Shown: positions 1 through 11,023 of the stretch, one piece after another | How the letters are laid out: each line of letters opens with the position of its first letter | Position numbering within the stretch: position 1 is the stretch's first letter | Virus genome (UHGV): UHGV-0053823 | Strand: one strand, 5' to 3' | Length of the DNA: 11,023 nt | Origin: a virus | Translations under genes and position numbers: made by a program | The notes under the pieces: generated by a model | Seen by the model: only the letters and a program-made list of their open reading frames with translations | What the model was told of the DNA's origin: nothing | Databases searched by the model: none

Positions 1-361
1 CCATATCTAACCGGACATTCAGAGCCATAAGCATTCCTTCAATAATACCTTCCGCTTTATAAAGCCTTTTACCAATAAGCCCATCAGAACATCTATGCTT
101 ACGTGCAAGAGCCATAAATGTCATTCCACCTACGTAATAATCCACCAACAAATCGTGCAAATACTGATTATTCTTGTTTAATCGTGCCATACAACCACAA
201 ATTATCATGGCGTCATCATCAGAACACTGAGGACGTGATTTCACTTTAGTCGGGATTAATCCTTTAAAACCAGCAGCTATCGAGGGCCATGTTACATCTT
301 CATGATTATTTGCTGCCCATGCCCCCCATCGCTCAAGAACCATCTGGATATCACGCGCCAT
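1..361 (-). CDS. Antitermination protein Q (phage 82/DLP12 QuuD-like type), 3' end truncated by window edge
   Basis: Minus-strand frame from ATG at 361..359 is open to position 1 (about 120 codons, no stop). Translation begins [37 protein letters not shown]..., which matches my recollection of E. coli prophage Q antiterminators. The start lies 8 nt upstream of the rusA stop, the usual rusA-Q arrangement. Confidence 0.7.
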
Positions 362-722
362 CGTTACCACCTCTGATTTCGTAAATCTTCACGCCCAGCC
401 GTCCACCTGGCACAGGCTGACCGCGCACAATATTGATTTCATCAAACTGCTCGTCATCAATGAGCACTTCCGCATGCGTCAGCGCATCCAGCGGTGCTTT
501 CAGAATGTTGTCCAGGTCACGGCGGCGCTTATCCGGTGGTTCTGCAATAATTTTTATTGCCAGCCGTCCGGACAGGCTTAATTTCAGCCGCTGCTGGCGA
601 ACAATAAGCGCCACTGCCCGGCGATAACGCTTTCCCGTTTCCGATATAAAGTACGTTCCACCACGACGTCGCCAGTAGGTGTTCACCGTTGGCGGGTAAG
701 GCAAAACAAACTCTATACGCAT
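351..722 (-). CDS. rusA: Holliday junction resolvase RusA
   Basis: 123-aa ORF with ATG start and AAGAGG Shine-Dalgarno 6 nt upstream. Sequence ([14 protein letters not shown]..., [29 protein letters not shown]) is characteristic of the RusA endonuclease family, including the catalytic D-rich core. Confidence 0.85.
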
Positions 723-734
723 CAGTAACCTCTT

Positions 735-1784
735 TTACCCGAGCACGCCGGTTGCAAAGGCGTGATCAAGAAAACGAAAAATTAAATCAACCTGGGAACC
801 ATGCTTTTCTTCGAACGCCAGCGGATCCGCATGAAGTTCGTTGTGATGTTCCCGGCACAACGGTAGCGTGAAAATATCGTGGGCCTTTGTTCCCATCCCT
901 CCCTGACCGTGACCAATCAGGTGATGGGGATCGTCGGCTGGCTGACCACAACACGCACACGGCTGTGTCTTCACCCAGCGCGTATATTTCTCATTTACCC
1001 AACGGCGACGTTTAGGTCGCCTCATGAAAGATTCCGGAGACTCTGGATCAACGGTGATGCTTACCACCGTCTTTTCCTGTGATGGGTTTTGTTGCTGGTG
1101 GGCGTGAGGCAACGGTGCAAGATTTTTTGTGCGCTGTTTCAATATGCTGGTGGCGGTCTGCTCTCCCGGTACGATGTCGCTTTCGCGGTACAAGGAGCAG
1201 ATTTTTTCCGCACGTAACCCCAGAGAACGACGTAATACTGCCTCCGGAAGCGCGTCCGCCACCTGATTGCGGACCGCCCACCAGGATAATTCAGCCAGAG
1301 ATAATTCACGCTCCTGCGTACCGCTTATTGCGTGACCGATGACGTCAATCATCCATGCTGACAGGTTTTGATGAGCAAGTTGCTCAAGTGATTCGGATGT
1401 CTGGTCACGCAGCTGGTTGTCGCAGTGCCAGCACAACACCATTGCGCCGGTACCATAACGGTGAATAACGGTTTCGCTGTGATGATAATCGCCGTGTGGC
1501 CACTGGCAGGATTTAATATGGCGCAACAGCCAGTCAGACAATGCACCAGCACCACCAGCAGCACGAATTACCCGTGCGTTACTGAAAAACGGCAGCAATG
1601 TTTTGTCTTCCACCAGCGGCTGGCGAACGGCAGGGACGACTCCGGATGGCAGGCCGCACATGCTTTTCGGTTCCGGCTCCACCAGCACTCGAGGATTGTG
1701 AAATACCTGCATGGATTCACGACCTGGCTTAAGGACCACCAGCCCGAGTTCCGGTACCAGAACAGGTCGAAGTAATACCCGCAC
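735..1784 (-). CDS. DUF968 family phage protein (YdfU-like) with C-terminal Cys/His HNH-like motif
   Basis: 349-aa ORF ending 13 nt before rusA. C-terminal region CACCGQPADDPHHLIGHGQGGMGTKAHDIFTLPLCREHHNELH resembles the DUF968/YdfU family found beside Q in Qin-type prophages. The start is a non-ATG codon (GTG at 1784), so the true start is uncertain. Confidence 0.6.
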   Translation of the reverse strand: MRVLLRPVLVPELGLVVLKPGRESMQVFHNPRVLVEPEPKSMCGLPSGVVPAVRQPLVEDKTLLPFFSNARVIRAAGGAGALSDWLLRHIKSCQWPHGDYHHSETVIHRYGTGAMVLCWHCDNQLRDQTSESLEQLAHQNLSAWMIDVIGHAISGTQERELSLAELSWWAVRNQVADALPEAVLRRSLGLRAEKICSLYRESDIVPGEQTATSILKQRTKNLAPLPHAHQQQNPSQEKTVVSITVDPESPESFMRRPKRRRWVNEKYTRWVKTQPCACCGQPADDPHHLIGHGQGGMGTKAHDIFTLPLCREHHNELHADPLAFEEKHGSQVDLIFRFLDHAFATGVLG

Positions 1785-1785
1785 G

Positions 1786-2058
1786 TTACCTCCAGATCCG
1801 TTGCTGGAATGTGCGGGACGGACGCGGTGGGCGTTCGGAGTAAGGGAGCCTGACGGAGATTATCCAGTGACGGTAGTCAAGGCTAAGGGCTTTTTTAACC
1901 TCGCATCCGCGCCTACGGTAACACTGAATCAGCCGTTCGGCCTGTTCTTCAGTGCATGGGGGATGCTGATACCAGTCATATTTGAATGCGTGCGAACGCC
2001 GCCCGTGCCTGCTGGCACGAACGGTATCAGAATTGTGTAATTTGGTCTTGTGCGCCAT
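1786..2058 (-). CDS. Hypothetical small basic protein upstream of the DUF968 gene (start uncertain; longest frame reaches 2112 with a TTG start)
   Basis: Open frame 1786..2112 with a non-repetitive, protein-like sequence (HAFKYDWYQHPPCTEEQAERLIQCYRRRGCEVKKALSLDYRHW). First ATG is at 2058; no convincing SD. Stop lies 2 nt before the DUF968 start codon. Confidence 0.25.
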   Translation of the reverse strand: MAHKTKLHNSDTVRASRHGRRSHAFKYDWYQHPPCTEEQAERLIQCYRRRGCEVKKALSLDYRHWIISVRLPYSERPPRPSRTFQQRIWR

Positions 2059-2128
2059 CTGTTTTCTCTGCTGGCGCAGCAGGTGCCAGTTGTTCAGGCT
2101 GGCGTGCGGCAATATTGTCTCTGATTTC

Positions 2129-2158
2129 TGTTGTCGTCAACAGGCAGCGTGCTATCAT
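2129..2158 (+). promoter_or_regulatory. Putative sigma70 promoter of the TA operon with an overlapping palindromic operator
   Basis: TTGTCG (about 2131-2136), 16-nt spacer, TATCAT (about 2153-2158), roughly 36 nt upstream of the antitoxin ATG. Inverted repeat TGTTG-N4-CAACA (about 2129-2142) overlaps the -35, as expected for an autoregulated TA promoter. Confidence 0.3.
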
Positions 2159-2193
2159 CGAATAGTGTTCTATCCTACTCCGTGAGGTTTACC

Positions 2194-2451
2194 ATGCGTA
2201 CAACCCAACAATTCAGCATTACATTAACTAACGAGATGGCTGACATGGTGCGCGCCCGTGTGGCTTCCGGTGCCTATGCTTCAGAAAGCGAGGTCATTCG
2301 TGAAGGGCTTCGCGCACTGAATGAGCGCGATAAAGCAATCGAAGCGTGGTTAACGCATTCAGCCGCCCCCGCTCTTGATTCTATCCGCGAAAATCCAAAC
2401 AACGGACGCTCCATTTCACAGGTTCGCGCCGCGATTCGATCCGGGAAGTAA
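2194..2451 (+). CDS. Type II antitoxin, ribbon-helix-helix ParD-like
   Basis: 85-aa ORF from internal ATG 2194 with GAGG SD 6 nt upstream (the track ORF from 2131 is probably an over-extension). About 85 aa, sitting 5 nt upstream of a ParE/RelE-like toxin gene. The N-terminal region (FSITLTNEMADMVRARVASGAYASESEVIREGLRAL) looks like an RHH DNA-binding fold. Confidence 0.75.
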   Translation: MRTTQQFSITLTNEMADMVRARVASGAYASESEVIREGLRALNERDKAIEAWLTHSAAPALDSIRENPNNGRSISQVRAAIRSGK

Positions 2452-2456
2452 TCTGC

Positions 2457-2756
2457 ATGACATATGAAGTCATCATTACCCCCGAGGCCGAACAGCAGAT
2501 AATAAACCTGCACAGATATATAACGGAGAAAGCAGGAAGCGTCATTGCTGACAATTATGCCAATGCGCTTCTTGATTATCTTGATGGGTTTTCTACATTC
2601 CCGCATCGGGGCAATAAACGCGATGATATTCGCCAGGGAATGCGGGTAACTCACTTCCGCCACAGAACGATTATTGCTTTTGCCGTTGACGGCAATAAAG
2701 TCTTTATCGCGGGTATTTATCATGGTGGGCAAAGCTATGAAGCCGATTTCTTATAA
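2457..2756 (+). CDS. Type II toxin, ParE/RelE superfamily
   Basis: 99-aa ORF starting 5 nt after the antitoxin stop. Size and C-terminal pattern (RVTHFRHRTIIAFAVDGNKVFIAGIYHGGQSYEADF) are typical of ParE/RelE-fold toxins; antitoxin-toxin gene order fits. Confidence 0.75.
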   Translation: MTYEVIITPEAEQQIINLHRYITEKAGSVIADNYANALLDYLDGFSTFPHRGNKRDDIRQGMRVTHFRHRTIIAFAVDGNKVFIAGIYHGGQSYEADFL

Positions 2757-2836
2757 ACTTTTACCCACATCATTCCGGTGTTAAAATAAACCGTCCGCCC
2801 CCTCTCTTACTGGCGGATTCGTAGGCTATATAAATC

Positions 2837-2873
2837 AAAGATCCCGGCTCGTGTATGCGTCAGGATCTTTTTT
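2837..2873. terminator. Probable bidirectional intrinsic terminator between convergent genes
   Basis: Stem AAAGATCC / GGATCTTT (8 bp) around an 18-nt loop, followed by TTTTTT on the plus strand and a U-rich tract on the minus strand. Lies between the toxin stop (2756) and the end of the minus-strand operon (2881). Confidence 0.45.
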
Positions 2874-2880
2874 CGGTGAT

Positions 2881-2964
2881 TTATCCCCAGCGGCAAATCG
2901 CATACACCACCAGCGCCACCGCCATTGCAATTCCTACCGTTGTGAATGCTTCAGGCCAGGTCAT
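2881..2964 (-). CDS. 27-aa hydrophobic peptide (MTWPEAFTTVGIAMAVALVVYAICRWG), predicted single-pass membrane peptide
   Basis: Too short for the ORF track. Its ATG overlaps the DUF551 gene stop (ATGA) and has a GGAGGA SD 9 nt upstream. Hydrophobic core of about 20 residues flanked by charged or aromatic ends; followed by the terminator hairpin. Confidence 0.4.
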   Translation of the reverse strand: MTWPEAFTTVGIAMAVALVVYAICRWG

Positions 2965-3623
2965 CGTAAAATATCCTCCACGCTTATCAGTCCGTTCCGC
3001 TCCAGATAACTCATCGCCTTATCCGGTAATTTGCAGTCTGGCTTCGCTTTCCTCAGTTGACTGACCAATTGCTTAACCAGCATGGTTAATTCGTTAACCT
3101 GTTTTCCGGATGCTTGTGGATTGTCAGTTTTACCAGAAGTGTCGGTACAGTCGGCGTTCCCACTCTTCTCCTCCTGCGGCGGTTCCGGTAGCGGCATCCA
3201 GTGAGTTGCTTGCTCAATACCATTACCCGGCTTAATCGTTGCATCTCCGCGCCGGAATGTGCTTCCGGTATAGCGTGCGGAGCATATTAGCGGCTCAACC
3301 AGATCACTATCGAAATTCACCGAAATAAGTACGTTCTGATTCTTTTTCGGCATTCGCTCACTACAGCTTATCCAACCATCCGGAGTTACCGAAACTGGCG
3401 ACGCGGCATATAGTGGTTTAGGCGATATCTCCGCGCGTTTTGCGTATGCTTCAACTGTGTCAGGGTTAAACAGGATTATGTTTTCACCGCATTCCCACGC
3501 CACCGGCTCTGCTTCCAGCGATGCCAGCGCAATACGTGCAATTTGTCGAATCTCATCGTTAACGTTGCACATGCGCGGGTCATTGACGTACTGCTCAATG
3601 CGTTCTCTGCTAATAGTGGCCAT
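2961..3623 (-). CDS. DUF551 domain phage protein with Ea22-like N-terminal segment
   Basis: 220-aa ORF containing the WISCSERMPKKNQNVLISV ... THWMPLPEPP signature of DUF551. ATG start with AAAGGAGAG SD, 1 nt after the upstream stop. Confidence 0.7.
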   Translation of the reverse strand: MATISRERIEQYVNDPRMCNVNDEIRQIARIALASLEAEPVAWECGENIILFNPDTVEAYAKRAEISPKPLYAASPVSVTPDGWISCSERMPKKNQNVLISVNFDSDLVEPLICSARYTGSTFRRGDATIKPGNGIEQATHWMPLPEPPQEEKSGNADCTDTSGKTDNPQASGKQVNELTMLVKQLVSQLRKAKPDCKLPDKAMSYLERNGLISVEDILR

Positions 3624-3624
3624 C

Positions 3625-3957
3625 TCACTCTCCTTTGATGCGAATGCCAGCGACGCGTAGTGCGTGTTCTAAGTCAATCAGGCAAAGCCAACTGCCATTT
3701 TCTTTAGGTATCATGACATGCCGCTTATCAGCATTTATTGGGTGCCCATATCGAAGGTCGTAGCGAGTCGGTAATTGAACTTCCCTCGCTTCCAGTTCTG
3801 CAATGTGTTTGTTTTTAGCTTCTAGTTCATCCAGCAGCGCCAGCACAACCTGCGGTGTGACTTTCATACGAAATGCCAGCAATTTTTGTGGTGTGGCTAC
3901 TATTTTTATTGCTTCTGCCGCCTCACGCAGTGCCTGATAGTTAATTTCGGTTGTCAT
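3625..3957 (-). CDS. Ead/Ea22-like protein (short form)
   Basis: 110-aa ORF with ALREAAEA and VVLALLDELEAKNKHIAELEAR coiled-coil motifs typical of Ead/Ea22-like early proteins. Start overlaps the upstream stop (ATGA). Confidence 0.6.
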   Translation of the reverse strand: MTTEINYQALREAAEAIKIVATPQKLLAFRMKVTPQVVLALLDELEAKNKHIAELEAREVQLPTRYDLRYGHPINADKRHVMIPKENGSWLCLIDLEHALRVAGIRIKGE

Positions 3958-4832
3958 GCCACCACCTCTTCGAATTTCAACTCCAATTGATCACCCCAGA
4001 TTTCACATGATTCGGAACACGAACCAGTATCAAACCGCCTGGCTTGCACCATCGCCTGATACAAATTACTGTAGTCACTGTCGGCATACATTCTGGCAAT
4101 CCCGTCAAGCGTCAGGTGGCCACGGTACATAACGTCTTTTCCTGTTCTGCGATGACCATCCCTGACGTGTTTGCCTGTAACCAGTTCATTAAAAAACCGC
4201 ATCAGACCAGGTTCGTCTTTACATGCAAGCCCCAGCTTTTGCGTTGACTTTTTGATGCAGAAAACACAGTTCCCGAGGTGCTCTGGGATTTGCAAATCAA
4301 AAGGTTGTGCTCGCCACCACCGGATAACATCCGACTTATCAAAATGTGACAGTTCGGCAAGATACCGGACGCCCGGTTTCGGTTTCAGCCTACGGTGTTC
4401 GTCCGCACGAATACCCAGCCATGTGATGTAATTCCCTCGTCCGAAATGGTCATCGCAATATTTCGTGAAAGGGGTGAGTTTTAGCCTGTCAGTACAGAAC
4501 GCGCCGCCGATGTATGGCGTGCCGTACTTTTTAACCATATCCATAAACGGTTTAAGCACCGGCATTCGCGTCTGAATATCCTTTGGTTCCCATTCCGTAT
4601 AACTATTTGGCTGCCCAAGCTCTGGATTTATATCGACCTGCAACACGGTTAGTGGAATATCCCAGAACTTCACGACTTCCCGAATAAATCGGTATGTCAG
4701 CGGGTGTTCACATCCCGTATCCATGAATATGTAATGAACGTTTTCACCTGCCTTTCTGCGTTGCTCCATAAGGTGAACGAGATACGCCGATGTACGACCG
4801 CCTGAAAAACTCACAACATGATGAGCGCTCAT
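3954..4832 (-). CDS. PAPS reductase-like / PP-loop ATP pyrophosphatase family enzyme
   Basis: 292-aa ORF with N-terminal PP-loop motif VVSFSGGRTSAYL and C-terminal cysteine pairs (NCVFC, GSCSESC) suggesting a metal or Fe-S site. ATG start at 4832. Confidence 0.7.
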   Translation of the reverse strand: MSAHHVVSFSGGRTSAYLVHLMEQRRKAGENVHYIFMDTGCEHPLTYRFIREVVKFWDIPLTVLQVDINPELGQPNSYTEWEPKDIQTRMPVLKPFMDMVKKYGTPYIGGAFCTDRLKLTPFTKYCDDHFGRGNYITWLGIRADEHRRLKPKPGVRYLAELSHFDKSDVIRWWRAQPFDLQIPEHLGNCVFCIKKSTQKLGLACKDEPGLMRFFNELVTGKHVRDGHRRTGKDVMYRGHLTLDGIARMYADSDYSNLYQAMVQARRFDTGSCSESCEIWGDQLELKFEEVVA

Positions 4833-4961
4833 TTCTTCGTCTCTTTATGGGGGATTAAACTGGCGGTAAGCTGGAATTGCCGGATGCTCACCCGTGTCCG
4901 GCGCACGTCCTCCACCTCACCCGTGGAGAACTCCTTAACCACAACCCCTAAGGAGGGTGAA

Positions 4962-5183
4962 ATGGATCAAAATGAAAAAATTAAAATCGCATTTCTTGCC
5001 GCTTCAAACGCCACGGCTTTATTTATTAACACTCCGCACTATCGCCAAAAATTAGAAGAAAAGCCGGGACTAAAGAAAACAACAATGAACCCAGAGTTCA
5101 TTTTTAAGAACGAATTTAGTCTTCACATGAAGCGCCTTTCTGAAATTCTAAATGCTCATCAAGCCAGTCCAGATCGGGATTGA
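4962..5183 (+). CDS. Hypothetical 73-aa protein on the opposite strand (candidate moron)
   Basis: ATG at 4962 preceded by a near-perfect SD (TAAGGAGGgtgaaATG, 5-nt spacing). AT-rich coding sequence unlike its flanks. The 3' end overlaps the 3' end of the convergent 187-aa gene by 68 nt. No recognisable domain. Confidence 0.35.
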   Translation: MDQNEKIKIAFLAASNATALFINTPHYRQKLEEKPGLKKTTMNPEFIFKNEFSLHMKRLSEILNAHQASPDRD

Positions 5184-5679
5184 TACGCACCAGTTCGAGT
5201 GAATATTCCATGGCATCCCTGGCGTACTCTTTCGGGATGCCATTTTCTTCAAGAATATCCTGAACTTTCTGGCGAATAACCGGAACCAGGAAAAGAAGTT
5301 TTGTTTCACGATTGCCAAGTAGTTCTTCCAGATCGCGCGTAGCCTCTTCCAGATCGCGCGTGGCCTCTTCTGGATAGCGATTGCCCGGTATTGATTCCTG
5401 CGAATTATTCAGTCTTTCAACAGAATTAATTGATTTATCGTTTTCTGTTATATTGCGTTTGATGTTTTGTTGACCTTTATTAAGGCAGCAATTTTGAATA
5501 TGGTCCTTGTGCTTTTCATTATCATAAGCATACAGCCCGACAAAAATATCCCGCAAGTTTCGGGAGATATTTTCCAGATTCGCCTTTGGTTCTTTTCTTA
5601 AATCAACCACCGATAAATGAGCTTTAAGCGTATCCGCAGCTACTTTCTGAATGTCCTCGGGTAAATCTTTAAATTGCAT
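5116..5679 (-). CDS. Hypothetical 187-aa protein with an internal EATRDLE tandem repeat
   Basis: ATG start with GAGGA SD 8 nt upstream; AT-rich, charged, probably helical protein. No family recognised. Confidence 0.55.
   Translation of the reverse strand: MQFKDLPEDIQKVAADTLKAHLSVVDLRKEPKANLENISRNLRDIFVGLYAYDNEKHKDHIQNCCLNKGQQNIKRNITENDKSINSVERLNNSQESIPGNRYPEEATRDLEEATRDLEELLGNRETKLLFLVPVIRQKVQDILEENGIPKEYARDAMEYSLELVRINPDLDWLDEHLEFQKGASCED
5325..5379. repeat. In-frame 21-bp tandem repeat (two units plus a degenerate third) inside the 187-aa gene
   Basis: CTTCCAGATCGCGCGTAGCCT followed by CTTCCAGATCGCGCGTGGCCT (1 mismatch), then a partial third unit CTTCTGGATAGCG. Encodes the repeated EATRDLE heptad on the minus strand. 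Confidence 0.8.
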
Positions 5680-5755
5680 AATATATCCTCATAGAACGGT
5701 GTATTTTCTCGTGAAATGTGAGCGATATGTCGTGACGTCCCTGTCACAGATTTCA

Positions 5756-6577
5756 TCAGACTGAGAATGTGCCGATGAAGGTTAAGATATCTGCTTCTTC
5801 GAAACGCTCTTTCAGCAGGTCACGGAACTCTTTGGCAATTTCTTCTTCCGCAGCTTCAATGCGCACGATACGTAGTACCAGAACAGGTTGCTCGCTGGTC
5901 AGAATACTTAGACGCAGGGTGAACTCACGGTTGCTCAGGCCCTCGAATGGGATGCATTCAAAGCGGAAAGTGGCAGGCATGATTTCCTTACTTTTAGCCT
6001 CCACTGATTCCATAACTGAGCGGCTACCGCTGAAGTTTTGTTCTTCATATTCAGCACTGCGTTTTGCATCGATAGTCAGACGACGGACAGCAGAGATAGC
6101 CTGTTTGATATCCAGTACATTACCGTCGCTGTCATAGGCCGTGAGGAAGTCGGCCCAGTCTTCCAGCCATTCAGCGAGAGATTTCTGGAGTTGTTTTTTG
6201 CCGTCCACGTCACGTAATGCGCGATATGGTGATGTGGCTTTCAGTTCCAGCAGTGCCTTGTTGTCAGCATGTCCTGGTTGATCCAGAGTGCCGATATTGA
6301 ACACAGTGACCGCTTTCATCGTTTCCGCGTTAATGAAGCAACGAGAGAACCCATCGACATAACCTTTGCTGTATTCAACAAAGTCATCAATACTGGTTGT
6401 GGTCATGACTCCACGGAAACGAAAGCGTTCTGTCATGAATCGCTCCAGACTTTCAATATTTACATTGTCCGGCAATAACGTAACGGGGCATTCCGTAAGC
6501 GGCAAATTTTCACCAGAAAAAGCAGTAGTGGTGAGCTTTACAATTTCTTTAATGGCATTGCTATCTAACTGAGACAT
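5756..6577 (-). CDS. Hypothetical 273-aa phage protein (size and context reminiscent of YfdQ/DUF2303; unverified)
   Basis: Long ORF with ATG start and a weak SD; non-repetitive sequence. Family assignment is tentative, based on length and on being downstream of a roughly 115-aa gene as in the yfdP-yfdQ pair. Confidence 0.6.
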   Translation of the reverse strand: MSQLDSNAIKEIVKLTTTAFSGENLPLTECPVTLLPDNVNIESLERFMTERFRFRGVMTTTSIDDFVEYSKGYVDGFSRCFINAETMKAVTVFNIGTLDQPGHADNKALLELKATSPYRALRDVDGKKQLQKSLAEWLEDWADFLTAYDSDGNVLDIKQAISAVRRLTIDAKRSAEYEEQNFSGSRSVMESVEAKSKEIMPATFRFECIPFEGLSNREFTLRLSILTSEQPVLVLRIVRIEAAEEEIAKEFRDLLKERFEEADILTFIGTFSV

Positions 6578-6646
6578 ATATATTTACCTGAGAAATAAAT
6601 TATTTATGGTTGATATCCCCTGATGTTTTCAGGAGGGAGTGATTAT

Positions 6647-6994
6647 TTAGCGTAAAACAGCGTCATGTTGGCCCTGTTTATCGAAAAGCTGTCCCTGGTC
6701 TTTCTGGAACAAAGTAAGCTCACCACCTTTATTTACAAACATCGGGGTGTTAGTCGTGTCTTCTTCTGATTTACTACCACGCATTGTCGGGCGTGTGAAT
6801 TTTAGTTTATGGGAAACTGATACGCGATTTTCATCAAGTGAAGATAATTCGAATTCAACACATACCTTTCCTTTTTTGTTTGTGCTGTTTACGCCAAAGG
6901 CAACTTCACTTAATACCGCACCAAGTTTATTAACAAATACCCCGCCGTCGAGGTCGTTAATGAAAACATTAACATCTGTCTGATGCTGACTCAT
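6647..6994 (-). CDS. Hypothetical 115-aa phage protein (possibly YfdP-like; unverified)
   Basis: ATG start with GGAG SD about 9 nt upstream; same strand and spacing as the neighbouring operon genes. Confidence 0.55.
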   Translation of the reverse strand: MSQHQTDVNVFINDLDGGVFVNKLGAVLSEVAFGVNSTNKKGKVCVEFELSSLDENRVSVSHKLKFTRPTMRGSKSEEDTTNTPMFVNKGGELTLFQKDQGQLFDKQGQHDAVLR

Positions 6995-7068
6995 ATTGAT
7001 ATCTCCGTGTAGAGAGTGTATTGAGGCTTCAGTTGTTTACTGAATTTAAAGCCTGGTTTGTTTGTGAA

Positions 7069-7656
7069 TTAAAAACTATCGCCGCCGTACTGCCAGTAAC
7101 CCGGGTCGTCCGTGTGATTCGGGTTTGCGTTTTTGCTGCGATTGTCTTTGTCTTTGAGAGTGGAAGCTATATTTGCTACAGTTTCTGGTTTCTTTCCTTC
7201 TGCCTTTTCTTTCAGGGTTTGCCCTGTTTCTGCAATGAATGGAATACGGATTTCCATCTGGTAACTGTCTGCGCCAGTCTTTTTGTTTATGGTTAATACT
7301 TTCTGTAGCACCAACCCGATTTTCTTTCCGTGGAATTCAGGGGCAACGTATTTACTGACGGAAACCATATGTTGCGTTAACTGCCTGATTCCTGCACATC
7401 CCATCATTGCATGAACAATATTTGCACCAAACTTGTTTTCCGTTCCGTCATTTTTCTGAACACAAACACTGAGATACTGAATTTTGCGTCCGTCGTCGGA
7501 TTCTCCAGAAAACTCAATGAATCGGGCACCTTTTTCTGATTGCTTGAGTTCTGCTTCAGTAATGGTAATGATATGCGCACCTGTTTCGGTAATGAAACCA
7601 CCTTGTCCGGCGGTCAGTGCTGCTTCTTCGTTATAAGTAAAAATCACTTCATCCAT
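7069..7656 (-). CDS. Hypothetical 195-aa protein immediately downstream of exo
   Basis: ATG start 7 nt after the exo stop. C-terminal region is Lys-rich then acidic/aromatic, ending ...DDPGYWQYGGDSF. No confident family assignment. Confidence 0.55.
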   Translation of the reverse strand: MDEVIFTYNEEAALTAGQGGFITETGAHIITITEAELKQSEKGARFIEFSGESDDGRKIQYLSVCVQKNDGTENKFGANIVHAMMGCAGIRQLTQHMVSVSKYVAPEFHGKKIGLVLQKVLTINKKTGADSYQMEIRIPFIAETGQTLKEKAEGKKPETVANIASTLKDKDNRSKNANPNHTDDPGYWQYGGDSF

Positions 7657-7662
7657 TAGTTA

Positions 7663-8346
7663 TTAACCCCCCCATTGTTCTCCAAATACAAAACCAATTT
7701 CAGCCAGGGCTTCGTCCATTTTTTCGATGAACTCCGGCACCATCTCATCAAAACTCGCCATGTACTTTTCATCCCGTTCGACCACGACATAATGCAGGCC
7801 TTCTCGCTTCATGCGCGGGTCGTAGTTGGCAAAGTACCAGGCGTCCTTGTCTGTAACCCACATGCTGAATTGCACCTGAGCCATATAAGCGGGTTTGATA
7901 GCATCAAAGCCGCCAAGTCTGAACTTCATGAAGTCGCGGGAAGTGAAGGGACATTTCAGTTCAAGACCGTTGCCGTCGCTGCATAAACCGTCGGGAGAGC
8001 AGGCGGTGCGCATGCTTTCGTCACGAAAAATTATGGGCGTTTCCGAGACGGTAATATCCGCGATAAATTCGAAGAGGGCACGGGCATCATCTTCATACTG
8101 CTTTCCCCATGCGAGCGACTTAGCGTTAACTTCCGGTGCCACGCCGGTACAAACTTCAGCCAGCAGGGTGTGGAAGTATGAGATTTTGGTATCAGGCCAT
8201 TTGCTGCCGGAACGTGGCTTTGCTATCACATTGTGAACTTCTGAAGCCGTGATAATGCCGAGCCTGAGTTTGTGCCACCCATCATCGTCCTGGCTGAGTG
8301 TGGTAATATCCACGCCAGTTCGCTGGAGAATAATTTCTGGCGTCAT
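7663..8346 (-). CDS. exo: Lambda-type 5'-3' exonuclease (Red-alpha / Exo)
   Basis: 227-aa ORF that matches lambda Exo, as I recall it, along nearly its whole length ([11 protein letters not shown]..., [56 protein letters not shown]-terminus [10 protein letters not shown]). Start overlaps the annealase stop (ATGA). Confidence 0.9.
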
Positions 8347-9293
8347 GATACGGCCTCGCTGTTATTTTCCGTGGTGGCGTGAACTTTCGCTTCCGCCGTG
8401 GCCTTGTTTCTGGCAGCTTTCTTTTTGACGAAAGCCAGCGCTTTGACAGCTTCTTCCTGATTGAGATTTTCATGTGATGCAATCGTGCGACCGAATATTT
8501 GGGAACACAGGGGGATCAGGTCATCCCATGTTTTGTTAATTTCGCTCATAGCCTGAGTGATCTCATTAATAATCTCATCTGATGCGGGAGTGACGTCACG
8601 CTCAGGGGGGTGATCAGCATTCAGGATGATACCTTCCCCGGCCTGAGTGTTCAGGTAGTCGATAGCCGTATCCAGGCGATCACGACGGGGCCAGTATTTG
8701 CTGGCGCGTTTAACAATGACTTTGCGGGCCATTTCATCGGGGAAACTATCCCACGGACTACTTCCCCCGTTCTGTCCGGCCTTGCTGCACGCTCTGATGG
8801 CTTCGATTGCCTCGTTGCTCATCTCTTCGGTCAGATAGTCGCCTTCGGATGTTTTGACGACACAATAACCGCCAATACGTGCGCCCCTGTCGACAAACGG
8901 GTTGTATTTGTGAGTGGGGGCGCAGTCAATGCCGTTGGACTCGTAAATGTCCTTCTCGTAAACAAGTTTGCATTGCCCCCACTGAATGGCTCCTGTGACC
9001 TGCGCCAGATGCAGAAGTCCCATATAACTGATATCCAGGCATACAGCACCTTTTCGCGGGACCAGATACGCCAGCTTACTGGCGGGGTTCAGGGTTATAC
9101 CAATGGCTGCAACATTGATGATAGCGTTCTGTGCGCTGGCTAGATTTCCCTGTGCTGTTTTAGCCAGAAAGTCATTTTTCTGGAATTGCTGAATTGCAAA
9201 CTGACTTTCCTTCGCCCATGTCAGCGTTGGTTCAGTCAATGCCTCGCAGAAAAATCGCTCCTGCTGTTTAACAAATTCAACGATATCGAACAT
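8343..9293 (-). CDS. ssDNA annealing protein: RecT-family core with a lambda Bet-like C-terminal domain
   Basis: Core motifs match RecT ([41 protein letters not shown] versus RecT SKAGNNGPWVTHWEEMAKKTAIRRLFKYLP). The C-terminal 70 aa ([16 protein letters not shown]...[20 protein letters not shown]...[15 protein letters not shown]) match the lambda Bet C-terminus as I recall it. Start placed at internal ATG 9293 (AGGA upstream, 16 nt after the Gam-like stop); the track's ATG at 9362 would overlap the upstream gene by 53 nt. Confidence 0.85.
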
Positions 9294-9309
9294 TTTTTGG
9301 TCCTGAAAA

Positions 9310-9591
9310 TCAGAAAGGACAGGGGGAGAATTTCCTCTCCCATTCTTCTTCCGCCCGTGCATAGGCGATCGCTGAGATATAATCGTTGTACGCCTCTTCA
9401 GCTTTATCGCCAGTAAGTGCCAGCTGGGCTTCTTTGGGTAAAAAAAGGCTGCTCATAAGCAATGGTTTATCGGGGAACATGCTGATAAGCTCCAGCGCCC
9501 GATCATCAATCCATTTATCCTTTTCATCCTGAATTTGCTGATTAACCCAGCGACGCTCCTCTATGCGGTCGCAGGTTAGGTATGCGTTCAT
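9310..9591 (-). CDS. Putative Gam-like RecBCD inhibitor
   Basis: 93-aa ORF with AGGAG SD 7 nt upstream. N-terminus MNAYLTCDRIEERRW resembles the start of the short form of lambda Gam (MNAYYIQDRLEAQSW), and it sits directly upstream of the annealase and exo as gam does in lambda. Similarity beyond the N-terminus is weak. Confidence 0.45.
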   Translation of the reverse strand: MNAYLTCDRIEERRWVNQQIQDEKDKWIDDRALELISMFPDKPLLMSSLFLPKEAQLALTGDKAEEAYNDYISAIAYARAEEEWERKFSPCPF

Positions 9592-9611
9592 GGCGGAACT
9601 CCTGATTCTGG

Positions 9612-9893
9612 TTAATGCATTAAATTAATTTGTCGGGAAAGCTGACAGACAGGGCAGTTACATTCTTCCTCCTGCTCTTTAGCGAGGAAATATGCAGCGG
9701 CCTGTAATGCGATGTCTTCGAGGTGTTCCGCGATAAACATGATGCTTCCTTCCGTATCAATAACAGAAATAGACTTATCAGGCAGGACGACAAAATAGGC
9801 GATGATTTTATCATCCATAAAAACTTCTCCCATTATCGTTTCTGCTGGCGTTATGACGCTTTTTACATTGATATTAATTTTTTGGTTGAGCAT
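9612..9893 (-). CDS. Hypothetical 93-aa protein
   Basis: Internal ATG at 9893 with AAGGA SD 6 nt upstream; the longer track ORF from 9947 would overlap the preceding gene. AT-rich; contains a CNCPVC motif. No family recognised. Confidence 0.45.
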   Translation of the reverse strand: MLNQKININVKSVITPAETIMGEVFMDDKIIAYFVVLPDKSISVIDTEGSIMFIAEHLEDIALQAAAYFLAKEQEEECNCPVCQLSRQINLMH

Positions 9894-9904
9894 GATATTT
9901 CCTT

Positions 9905-10117
9905 TCAGGCTGGCGAGATTAACGGTTGGCCTTTGTGGTTCAGGCAAATTTCGATTGTCTCTGAGATAATGCGAATTTTTTCAATCAGTGAATGTGCGTA
10001 AAGCGCATTATTAACGTTTGCTGACGCCATGTAATAACGCCCGTTGTAAAGAATTGCTGTGCCGGGTTTAACTTCCTCGCGAGAAACTAATGCGGTTCCG
10101 TAGTGAGGTTTGAGCAT
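9905..10117 (-). CDS. Hypothetical 70-aa protein
   Basis: ATG start with GGAGGA SD 6 nt upstream; first gene after the Rha gene on the same strand. No family recognised. Confidence 0.45.
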   Translation of the reverse strand: MLKPHYGTALVSREEVKPGTAILYNGRYYMASANVNNALYAHSLIEKIRIISETIEICLNHKGQPLISPA

Positions 10118-10156
10118 GACAAATCCTCCGGTTAATTAATCCAGATATTTAATTTA

Positions 10157-10179
10157 ATCCCCGATACGTGATCGGGGAT
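10157..10179. repeat. Perfect 9-bp inverted repeat (ATCCCCGAT-acgtg-ATCGGGGAT) flanked by TTAATTAA octamers
   Basis: Seen directly in the sequence between the Rha stop (10188) and the next gene start (10117). TTAATTAA occurs at about 10132-10139 and 10184-10191. Could be an RNA hairpin or a dyad-symmetric protein-binding site. Confidence 0.5.
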
Positions 10180-10187
10180 GGGCTTAA

Positions 10188-10832
10188 TTAAAGATTAACG
10201 TTGAAACCAAAGCGGGAAGATTTTTCCGATGTACGGGAAATATCCAGCAATTTACGGCGCATTTCTTCCGTCAGATGTTTGAAAGCGTTAAATTCGGCAA
10301 CAGCGGCGTCAACGTTATAGCCCTTGCTGTGTAGTTCGTTGAGGATGCGCATAGTTGGGCTTGGCATATCGAAGAGCACGGAAGCATCAAGGCTGATAAC
10401 TTTGCGATCAACATAATTCATCGTGGCGTAGGGGTGATGCTCAGAAAACCACGATAAAGGGAAATTGATGTTCATCGCAGGAGAAGACAGGGCCAGTTGT
10501 TTCTGTTCCCATAGTTGTTTTTCCATGCGATCGAATTCAGCGATGTAGGCTTCTTTGAAAGCTGCGGCTTTTTTACCAGTGAATCCCATTACCAGGAAGA
10601 CGAAGCCGTTTTTGGTGATTTGATAGGCGTTATAGGTATTACCCCGGTGTTCGAATTTAACCCGCGAAAAGTTGCTGGTTAAGAATTGTTCAGAGCATTC
10701 AAGGGATTCTATTTTCTGAACAACATGGTGATGCTGCTTCTCAAAGAACTCTGCGATGTCAATTGACGTAGTGATGGCATTGCCGTTTTCAATAGTTACG
10801 GATGGGCGAGAAAGGGGAGATATAGTAGCCAT
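10188..10832 (-). CDS. Phage regulatory protein, Rha family
   Basis: 214-aa ORF from internal ATG 10832 preceded by a consensus SD (AAGGAGG, 9-nt spacing). N-terminal domain ITTSIDIAEFFEKQHHHVVQKIESLE ... YQITKNGFVFLVMGFTGKKAAAFKEAYIAEFDRMEKQL matches the Rha domain. Confidence 0.75.
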   Translation of the reverse strand: MATISPLSRPSVTIENGNAITTSIDIAEFFEKQHHHVVQKIESLECSEQFLTSNFSRVKFEHRGNTYNAYQITKNGFVFLVMGFTGKKAAAFKEAYIAEFDRMEKQLWEQKQLALSSPAMNINFPLSWFSEHHPYATMNYVDRKVISLDASVLFDMPSPTMRILNELHSKGYNVDAAVAEFNAFKHLTEEMRRKLLDISRTSEKSSRFGFNVNL

Positions 10833-10997
10833 GGTGGCAGCCTCCTTGATTGGTGATTGATAACCACCGCCGGAGGTCCTAAACTCGCTGGCGGTGGACT
10901 GTACAGGGTTAGGACTACTGGCAATCAAGGGAACCAGCCCGACCGAAGTCGGCCCCATACAGCCCACCATTGATAAGATGTGCGTGCATGTCGATAC

Positions 10998-11023
10998 AAA
11001 AAAAAGCCCGCGGCACGGCAGGG
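10998..11023 (-). terminator. Possible intrinsic terminator for minus-strand transcription, truncated by window edge
   Basis: Plus strand reads A8 followed by GC-rich GCCCGCGGCACGGCAGGG; on the minus strand this is a GC-rich segment followed by U8. The partner arm of the stem would lie beyond position 11023. Confidence 0.25.

Follow-up and report, generated by a model that had tools for sequence, protein, structure and literature searches.

Stx-converting lambdoid phages (Sepvirinae type, including the 7.1_Anguil Stx2a prophage, ArgO145, and wrbA prophages) have a PL operon with the gene order Rha-KilR-GamL-RecT-Exo-SSB-like-YfdP-DUF2303-PAPS reductase-Ea22-DUF551, which continues into AntA, an MT-A70 methylase, DUF1382, xis, and int. 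In Rac/Qin-like prophages (ECOR29 beside yccA, loci L035-L044, O111 11128, and phages Evi and vB_EcoS-689R5), the nin end of the PR operon reads DUF551-(ParD and ParE on the opposite strand)-small ORF-DUF968-RusA-Q. The locus described here shares the first order over one part of its length and the second over the other. Large rearrangements bounded by prophages have been described in E. coli O157:H7, both in culture and in cattle, where the reported cases involved repeats of at least 5 kb with at least 98% identity and had confirmation from long-read sequencing or optical mapping (Fitzgerald et al. 2021, PMC8743559). Iguchi et al. 2006 (cited in PMC6379469) also documented prophage-prophage recombination in E. 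coli O157:H7. Chimeric contigs that form at intragenomic or inter-strain repeats in short-read de Bruijn metagenome assemblies are a further point of comparison, since like this locus they have low coverage, a unique join, and ends on repeat boundaries, and they switch exactly at the longest k-mer run common to paralogous prophage regions.

The window, that is, the whole stretch of DNA analyzed (11,023 nt), is an entire ENA metagenome contig (ERZ1304315 NODE_3053_length_11023_cov_2.84). Its gene content and order were confirmed by the ORF list, Pfam searches, and called genes (Table 1). A minus-strand run from Rha through Kil, GamL, RecT, and Exo to PAPS reductase, Ea22, and DUF551 leads directly into DUF968-RusA-Q, and ParD and ParE are the only plus-strand genes between DUF551 and DUF968. 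The original prediction had described Red-type and nin/Q genes collinear on one strand, separated only by an opposite-strand toxin-antitoxin pair and by none of the repressor, cro, replication, or integrase genes, and both statements were borne out by these data; no gene of those four kinds was found anywhere in the window among ORFs, Pfam matches, or called genes. GamL (an inhibitor of host nuclease), RecT (a single-strand annealing protein), and the YqaJ 5'-3' exonuclease are adjacent on one strand, as in the core of a left operon, and the xis/int continuation expected of an early-left operon is absent from the window. DUF968, RusA, and Q follow one another in nin/Q order, after which relatives have lysis and terminase genes; cro/cII and replication genes, downstream of which a nin/Q segment is expected on the same strand, do not precede it in the window. 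The order had been called unusual, which holds for the RecT/Exo left operon upstream but not for Ea22/DUF551-(ParDE)-DUF968-RusA-Q, a normal nin order in many lambdoid prophages. The two halves are of well-known kinds, as are the recombination genes and the toxin-antitoxin cassette. A promoter and terminator scan of positions 1-4000 gave counts at chance level. Apart from a tandem duplication of 21 nt and a single weak inverted repeat, neither of them at the junction, a repeat search within the window found nothing.

Table 1. Features of the 11,023-nt window
Feature	Position	Strand	Basis or remark
Antiterminator Q	2-361	-	PF06530 on called gene; C-terminal part cut by contig end
RusA Holliday-junction resolvase	351-722	-	PF05866, E = 2.5e-16
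DUF968 (YdfU-like)	735-1784	-	PF06147, E = 5.4e-77
Small hypothetical ORF	1786-2058	-	No Pfam match; annotated at same site in ECOR29 and O111 prophages
ParD antitoxin	2194-2451	+	PF03693, 31.6 bits (cut-off 21)
ParE toxin	2457-2756	+	PF05016, 40 bits (cut-off 23)
DUF551, hybrid, 220 aa	2961-3623	-	PF04448 at aa 83-150
Inter-parent homologous tract, ~360 bp, ~93% identical	3170-3530		BLAST extents of A-type and B-type parents overlap
Parentage switch, 35 bp identical in both parents	3259-3293		Mismatch maps and three-way alignment
Ead/Ea22	3625-3957	-	Pfam; A-type left-operon origin
PAPS reductase/NinC-like	3954-4832	-	Pfam; A-type left-operon origin
DUF2303/YfdQ	5756-6577	-	Pfam on called gene
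YfdP	6647-6994	-	Pfam on called gene
SSB-like protein, 195 aa	within recombination module 5756-9591	-	Pfam on called genes
YqaJ-type exonuclease	7663-8346	-	PF09588
RecT	8343-9293	-	PF03837
GamL	9310-9591	-	PF28165
KilR	9905-10117	-	Pfam; PF27398/PF09669 cover KilR and Rha pair
Rha/ASH-family regulator	10188-10958	-	Pfam; PF27398/PF09669 cover KilR and Rha pair
C4 antisense RNA	10887-10974	-	Rfam RF01695, 78.9 bits (gathering 45), full-length model

Judged by its sequence matches, the window right of ~3294 represents a wrbA/argW-type Stx-like prophage (parent A), of which it is the early-left operon, dependent on N. Positions 3259-10957 differ at 2 positions from L013, a wrbA-side left operon, and are up to 99.97% identical to the Stx-phage PL operon; positions 3625-4832 have 0 mismatches to the O157 7.1_Anguil Stx2a prophage. 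In real genomes, including every isolate read, the parent A operon goes on through DUF551, AntA, the methylase, xis, and int and is integrated in the context int-wrbA-yccJ-agp, whereas the window continues into ParDE-DUF968-RusA-Q. Among 24 contigs read, the exact Ea22 protein was followed by AntA...xis-int in all 10 of the places shown. By exact look-up the exonuclease protein proved common and so does not tie the contig to a sample. A C4 antisense RNA lies upstream of Rha and overlaps the called Rha start.

By the same kind of comparison, the window left of ~3258 represents a second lambdoid prophage (parent B), in whose rightward operon it is the distal nin end. Positions 1613-3293 differ from this nin end at 1 base, and positions 1701-3293 have 1 mismatch to the nin regions of ECOR29 and L035-L044. 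This segment is preceded in real genomes by cro, YdaT, replication genes, DUF1627, DUF977, and DUF551, and replication genes were present in all B-type relatives among the isolates and loci read. The integration context of parent B is int-yccA-tusE...helD, and the small ORF at 1786-2058 is always found ahead of DUF968 in B-type nin regions. The window departs from the Rac/Qin-like prophages in other respects too. Their DUF551 has a B-type N-terminus and 235 aa, whereas that of the window differs there, and the Q-RusA genes and part of DUF968 of the window represent a rarer allele. This rarer allele is 94-96% identical to the nearest complete genomes. For positions 1-1700 the best match in complete genomes was 94.8-95.8% identical, with L023 alone matching 1-1043 exactly, and the exact RusA protein, a very rare allele, occurred in the collection on only two contigs, the window and L023. 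An exact look-up placed the DUF968 protein on the window contig only. Column by column, positions 1044-1612 within DUF968 carry ~60 SNPs relative to the B-type allele, with flanks identical to B-type. Comparison of the protein with 14 cluster members showed the DUF968 family to be a patchwork of alleles, in which natural mosaicism and mis-assembly look alike.

The change of parentage falls inside the DUF551 gene, which both parental operons carry. It is sharp and lies within the tract common to both parents: B-type SNPs stop at 3258 and A-type SNPs start at 3294, and the parent loci have no exact match longer than the 35-bp run that separates these positions. The resulting ORF is intact and in frame, with its N-terminal 110 aa of the Stx-phage type A and its C-terminal ~100 aa of the nin type B. 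We conclude from these alignments that the window reads as a splice of two ordinary lambdoid (E. coli) prophage operons within the shared 35 bp. The proposal that a leftward Red/ea operon here meets a rightward nin/Q segment was upheld. Each half is near-identical to canonical prophages that carry the missing genes, xis/int on one side and replication and immunity genes on the other, and comparison with related intact prophages mapped the breakpoint to 3259-3293. The interval 1785-2960, where short homology had been suggested, is rejected as the breakpoint, the B-type parent being identical to the window across it. A third DUF551 allele (L131 and L132; 98% over 3170-3391) was considered as a single junction donor and rejected, its flanks being unrelated to the window.

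The hybrid allele itself appears to be confined to this contig. An exact look-up found the 220-aa protein on the window contig only, and no end-to-end high-identity cluster was present among 5.8 billion clusters. The 86-nt junction had 0 matches in IMG/VR, JGI metagenomes, and GTDB representatives, whereas the parental versions of the region are both common and had 9 and 2 matches in IMG/VR. Neither the 5,426 complete E. coli genomes nor the 50,697 phage records contained a junction allele of at least 99% identity, and the reciprocal junction had 0 matches in the collections searched. Neither junction was sighted independently in these collections in another assembly, isolate, or long read.

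With moderate confidence, we infer that the join was made by the metagenome assembler and not by a cell, because the window is a thinly covered metagenome contig; its low coverage (2.84×) and short-read origin are those of an assembly chimera. At ~3× k-mer coverage, a multi-k de Bruijn assembler (SPAdes-like) may thread between paralogous prophages, passing through a shared stretch of at least 33 identical bases where coverage of the correct continuations is thin or these have been clipped. The DUF968 allele swap at 1044-1612 could be a smaller instance of the same effect. From the NODE_..._cov naming, we take the assembler to be SPAdes with default k = 21, 33, and 55, in which case the 35-bp identity would suffice for k = 21 or 33 and fall short of k = 55. 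The parent loci share 33-mers only at 3259-3293 and 3402-3434, and no 41-mer or 55-mer. Since no 55-mer is shared, a chimera would have to arise by bulge collapsing or from paths carried over from k = 21 or 33, not from a simple final-k repeat, and the window, whose shared run does not reach the presumed final k (55), differs in this from chimeric contigs at repeats.

Contigs from a second assembly bear on the path taken by the window. L023 (1.1 kb, MEGAHIT, ERR414344) is identical to window 1-1043, has B-type bases at 1044-1104, and ends at the same base as the Q-side end of the window. L126 (MEGAHIT, ERR414344) is identical to window 2717-3293 and stays B-type through 3294-3530, encoding an intact 235-aa DUF551. 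Aligned base by base, these contigs contradict the path of the window, and they presumably come from the same sample or strain (ERZ1304315 versus ERZ919555). Against an assembly origin, a clean switch at the longest identity and an in-frame hybrid gene are equally expected of homologous recombination. In a look-up the contig was reported in 2 samples, which we read as a duplicate deposit but which could be independent support for the join. The junction of the original prediction stands as a junction of two operons; for a 2.84× contig, an in-silico join at a shared repeat is at least as likely as the biological deletion or inversion proposed. If the join is an artifact, low-coverage metagenome contigs over multi-copy lambdoid modules (DUF551, DUF968, and Ea22) can thread between prophages, and such contigs need read-level support before being called new phage architectures.

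A real inter-prophage homologous recombinant, with strand exchange in the DUF551 core by RecA or by the phage RecT/Exo in an E. coli strain that carries both prophages, is the main alternative, though a less likely one. It is likewise doubtful, though possible, that the contig is a faithful copy of a gut E. coli chromosome in which a wrbA Stx-like prophage and a neighboring serT/yccA prophage recombined via 35 bp of DUF551. With parent A at wrbA and parent B at serT/yccA, each oriented as in isolates, the DUF551 tracts would be inverted repeats, and a crossover would invert ~60-70 kb. One product would carry left-operon genes, the hybrid DUF551, ParDE, DUF968, RusA, Q, and the late genes of B, and its reciprocal would have the order replication(B)-DUF551-AntA-xis-int(A). 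Direct orientation of the tracts would give a deletion instead. The integration contexts of the two parents favor such an event, their relative orientation being taken from the K-12 gene map. So do a switch that coincides with the longest identity the parents share and a hybrid ORF that stays in frame. Red/RecET-type recombination can use 35 bp of identity, so the shared run is within its range. The DUF551 core recurs in leftward and rightward operons of unrelated prophages, which makes natural exchange plausible, and cores with nearly the same SNP combination in other prophages indicate that it does recombine in nature.

The precedent from E. coli O157:H7, which includes inversions and duplications, also lends weight to recombination; there, as in the window if it is real, homologous recombination of two resident lambdoid prophages produced a hybrid junction. 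The likeness is limited. In place of the long, nearly identical repeats of the O157:H7 cases, the window has a homology of 360 bp at ~93% identity, of which 35 bp form an exact core; the operons it joins, a left and a right one, are not equivalent; and its support is one short-read contig with a coverage of 2.84×. The absence of the junction and its reciprocal from every collection searched also argues against a recombinant, as do the contigs of an assembly that has the same rare RusA allele, which retain the unrecombined B linkage, and the DUF968 allele swap, which would require a second event. A true recombinant would be a hybrid prophage with two arms, locked in place. Leftward transcription antiterminated by N would read into the Q of the other phage, and through it one repressor would control its own rightward arm together with the Q and late genes of the other. 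It would be a further example of prophage-prophage recombination reshaping the E. coli chromosome, notable only for the very short homology and for the fusion of a leftward operon to the Q/late arm of another phage.

The non-canonical genome architecture that had also been proposed, a viable, inducible phage lineage with Red-type genes and nin/Q in one transcription unit and immunity and replication elsewhere, is very improbable: Ea22, DUF551, NinC-like, and ParDE genes are found in one operon or the other across lambdoid phages, indicating that modules move between arms, but each half of the window is near-identical to a canonical prophage, its gene order was not found in 80 RecT-bearing IMG/VR loci, the phage records, or the complete E. 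coli genomes, and in the latter two sets no record held the whole window and the largest share found in one place was at most 71%. In none of those 80 loci, whose RecT relatives are 57-93% identical, did DUF968, RusA, or Q lie downstream on the same strand; where context was visible, integrase was downstream, and Q, RusA, or DnaC was upstream on the opposite strand.

The ParDE cassette faces against the surrounding operon and has the organization of a type II toxin-antitoxin system, with the small RHH antitoxin ParD first, the RelE/ParE-fold toxin ParE 5 nt on, and both above their Pfam cut-offs. Among 25 contigs read, the exact ParE lay downstream of replication genes in 4 of 4 places shown. 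The same cassette is found in nin regions of rightward operons and, in Stx phage ArgO145, within the left operon; other phages have hok-type or other genes in its place. A boundary at 2108/2111 in the phage matches corresponds to the edge of this mobile cassette.

ORF and Pfam calls bore out the gene order of the original prediction, in which a Red-type operon is followed on one strand by a nin/Q segment, with a toxin-antitoxin pair on the opposite strand. All substantial genes in the window are on the minus strand except ParD and ParE. No repressor, cro, replication, or integrase genes were found in the window among ORFs, Pfam matches, and called genes.

Features of the window and copies of the DUF551 core in other prophage loci
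Feature	Position	Strand	Remark
Rha/ASH regulator	10188-10958	-	
KilR	9905-10117	-	
93-aa ORF	between KilR and GamL	-	
GamL	9310-9591	-	
RecT	8343-9293	-	
YqaJ-type exonuclease	7663-8346	-	
195-aa protein	between exonuclease and YfdP	-	SSB annotation in phage ArgO145
YfdP	6647-6994	-	
DUF2303/YfdQ	5756-6577	-	
187-aa hypothetical ORF	between DUF2303/YfdQ and PAPS reductase gene	-	
PAPS reductase/NinC-like	3954-4832	-	
Ead/Ea22	3625-3957	-	
DUF551	2961-3623	-	
ParD	2194-2451	+	
ParE	2457-2756	+	
Small ORF	1786-2058	-	
DUF968	735-1784	-	
RusA	351-722	-	
Q	2-361	-	cut by sequence end
DUF551 core copy, locus L131	8991-9212		98% to window 3166-3391
DUF551 core copy, locus L132	8987-9212		98% to window 3166-3391

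The right-hand part of the window (parent A) is an ordinary early-left operon of a Stx phage. Early-left operons from many Stx-converting phages matched positions 2111-11004 at 92-95%, and the Stx2a prophage of O157:H7 7.1_Anguil matched 3170-11004 at 97.7%, with no mismatches from 3259 to ~7600. The closest match for 3259-10957 was L013, a contig of isolate assembly GCA_012366135.1, which differed at two positions. In 7.1_Anguil and ArgO145, the left operon is canonical, being divergent from a LexA-type repressor and cro, and past DUF551 it continues to AntA, an MT-A70 methylase, DUF1382, xis, and int. The exact window Ea22 protein (24 contigs read) was followed by the AntA...int continuation in 10 of 10 distinct places listed, where int adjoins wrbA-yccJ-agp or an argW-type site. 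Whereas the known operon runs to xis/int, that of the window runs to ParDE-DUF968-RusA-Q.

The left-hand part (parent B), the nin/Q end of a rightward operon, is likewise ordinary. Over window 1-3530, identity to a lambdoid prophage in E. coli ECOR29 was 94.7%, and only one base differed within 1701-3293. That prophage has the order int-xis-RecE-kil ... repressor / cro-like-YdaT-replication (HTH_36, DnaC-like)-DUF1627-DUF977, followed by two small ORFs, DUF551, ParD and ParE on the opposite strand, a small ORF, DUF968, RusA, Q, lysis, terminase, and head genes. The exact ParE protein (25 contigs read) had an ECOR29-like layout in four of the four places listed, and an intact 235-aa DUF551 occupied the same position in ten further places. 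Ea22 or DUF551 genes also lie between the replication genes and DUF968-RusA-Q in O111 11128, CFSAN004176, and phages Evi and vB_EcoS-689R5. The adjacency that had been taken as odd, ea22/DUF551 beside DUF968-RusA-Q with only a toxin-antitoxin pair between, is therefore what many nin regions normally have. The difference is upstream: ECOR29-type prophages have replication genes there, whereas the window has a RecT/exonuclease left operon.

The ParDE cassette (2111-2960) is a mobile unit with sharp edges. It was found at 100% in ECOR29-type prophages, in their rightward nin region, and at 95% identity in the left operon of ArgO145, facing against operon transcription in both settings. The 2108/2111 boundary in phage matches was rejected as a breakpoint, being simply the cassette edge.

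Mismatch maps against both parents located the join inside DUF551. The window had the B-type base at all 10 parent-distinguishing sites in 3186-3258 and the A-type base at all 17 in 3294-3507; the parentage switch therefore lies within 3259-3293, which is identical in both parents. The original prediction was right that a junction joins the Red/ea operon to nin/Q, but placed it at about 1785-2960. The Pfam DUF551 domain (aa 83-150, nt 3174-3377) contains the switch interval, as does a ~360-bp tract (3170-3530) common to both operons at ~93%. No exact match between the parent loci is longer than this interval; they share 33-mers only there and at 3402-3434, and no 41-mer. The hybrid ORF is in frame and encodes 220 aa, A-type at the N-terminus and B-type at the C-terminus. 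Copies of the DUF551 core (3166/3170-3391) at 98% identity are present in unrelated prophages, in either arm and with unrelated flanks each time; the core thus behaves as a natural, linker-type mosaic joint. One copy is on the int side beside yfdPQR-like genes (O157 146N4), and the other is between replication genes and terminase (strain 4/0).

The junction was not found elsewhere. Exact look-up of the hybrid DUF551 protein among indexed gene positions returned only this contig, and 5.8 billion protein clusters held no full-coverage, high-identity match; the best were one-sided (96% identity and 87% query coverage for the B part; 97% and 70% for the A part). Exact searches of IMG/VR, JGI metagenomes, and GTDB representative genomes with an 86-nt string spanning the junction found nothing, whereas two parental strings used as positive controls gave nine and two IMG/VR matches. 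The reciprocal junction expected of such an exchange likewise had no match in the collections searched. Among 5,426 complete E. coli genomes and 50,697 phage records, there was no copy of the 171-nt junction region at ≥99%, and any one record covered at most 71% of the window at a single place.

The window is an entire ENA metagenome contig (ERZ1304315 NODE_3053_length_11023_cov_2.844365), identified by exact-protein look-up, with a SPAdes-style name and k-mer coverage below 3. The look-up listed it in two samples, which we read as a duplicate deposit, though it may instead reflect an independent occurrence that would speak against a chimera. Its RusA allele is very rare, occurring in only one other contig, L023 (MEGAHIT, human gut run ERR414344). 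L023 is identical to window 1-1043 and has B-type bases at 1044-1104, where the window turns to a different DUF968 allele until ~1612. A second contig of that MEGAHIT assembly, L126, matches window 2717-3293 base for base, stays B-type through 3294-3530, and encodes an intact 235-aa DUF551. The MEGAHIT contigs and the window are likely from the same sample or strain. If so, an unrecombined B prophage exists there, and the window departs from it at two points, both of them paralogous repeats, as is characteristic of an assembly path that runs through a collapsed graph.

We therefore consider it somewhat more probable than not that the join is an assembly chimera, in which the assembler path would have threaded between paralogous prophage repeats, at DUF551 and at DUF968. 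The 2.84x coverage, the crossing of multi-copy prophage modules, and the uniqueness of the junction though both parents are common argue for a chimera. Against it, the parents share no 55-mer, so under the assembler settings that the contig name suggests, carry-over from a smaller k or bulge collapsing would be needed. Chimera and recombination alike predict one clean switch at the longest run of shared identity.

A real inter-prophage recombinant, in which inversion or deletion would have formed the junction of a locked-in hybrid prophage, is a lesser but serious possibility. If A sits at wrbA and B next to yccA, oriented as in the isolates, the K-12 map would make the DUF551 tracts inverted repeats, and inversion between them would give exactly this junction, at a core that recurs as a mosaic joint. 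Prophage-to-prophage recombination is well documented in O157:H7, where it yields inversions and duplications (PMC8743559; Iguchi et al. 2006, as cited in PMC6379469). However, those rearrangements involve repeats of at least 5 kb (PMC8743559), much longer than the 360-bp tract here; the junction is absent from all collections searched, and the L023/L126 assembly keeps the unrecombined B linkage.

An established alternative phage architecture, raised in the original prediction, is very improbable: among 80 IMG/VR loci with RecT relatives (57-93% identity), surveyed with window proteins and parental integrases and replication proteins, in none was RecT followed on its own strand by DUF968, RusA, or Q; visible contexts had integrase downstream and, upstream on the opposite strand, Q, RusA, or DnaC, and relatives with the window's order were likewise absent from the genomes and phage records. 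Whether chimera or recombinant, the components are ordinary and form no new kind of system.

The patch in DUF968 (1044-1612) differs from the B-type allele by ~60 SNPs, has flanks that match B-type exactly, and gives a DUF968 protein that exact look-up found on this contig alone; it reflects either gene conversion or a second change of path by the assembler. Window position 1 and L023 position 1104 end at the same base inside Q despite different assemblers, which points to a repeat boundary or graph branch in lambdoid Q genes.

G+C is lower at 5000-5750 and 6500-7500 (0.38-0.43 vs ~0.50 elsewhere in the window). The 187-aa ORF, YfdP, and the SSB-like gene fall in these stretches, which suggests that the left operon gained these modules separately. 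A 21-nt tandem duplication (5324-5365; copies 95% identical) gives the 187-aa protein a repeated EEATRDL motif. The PAPS reductase-like gene, in the leftward operon here, is named NinC in several Stx phage records; in lambda, ninC belongs to the nin region, in the rightward operon, and this is another module moved between the two arms. A C4 antisense RNA (10887-10974, minus strand) was found as a full-length match to Rfam RF01695 (78.9 bits vs gathering score 45) directly upstream of the Rha/ASH gene, and together they look like a P1 ImmI-type c4/antirepressor control module within the left operon. Because the RNA overlaps the called Rha start and the ArgO145 product is annotated as shorter (215 aa), the start codon at 10958/10970 seems to be over-called.
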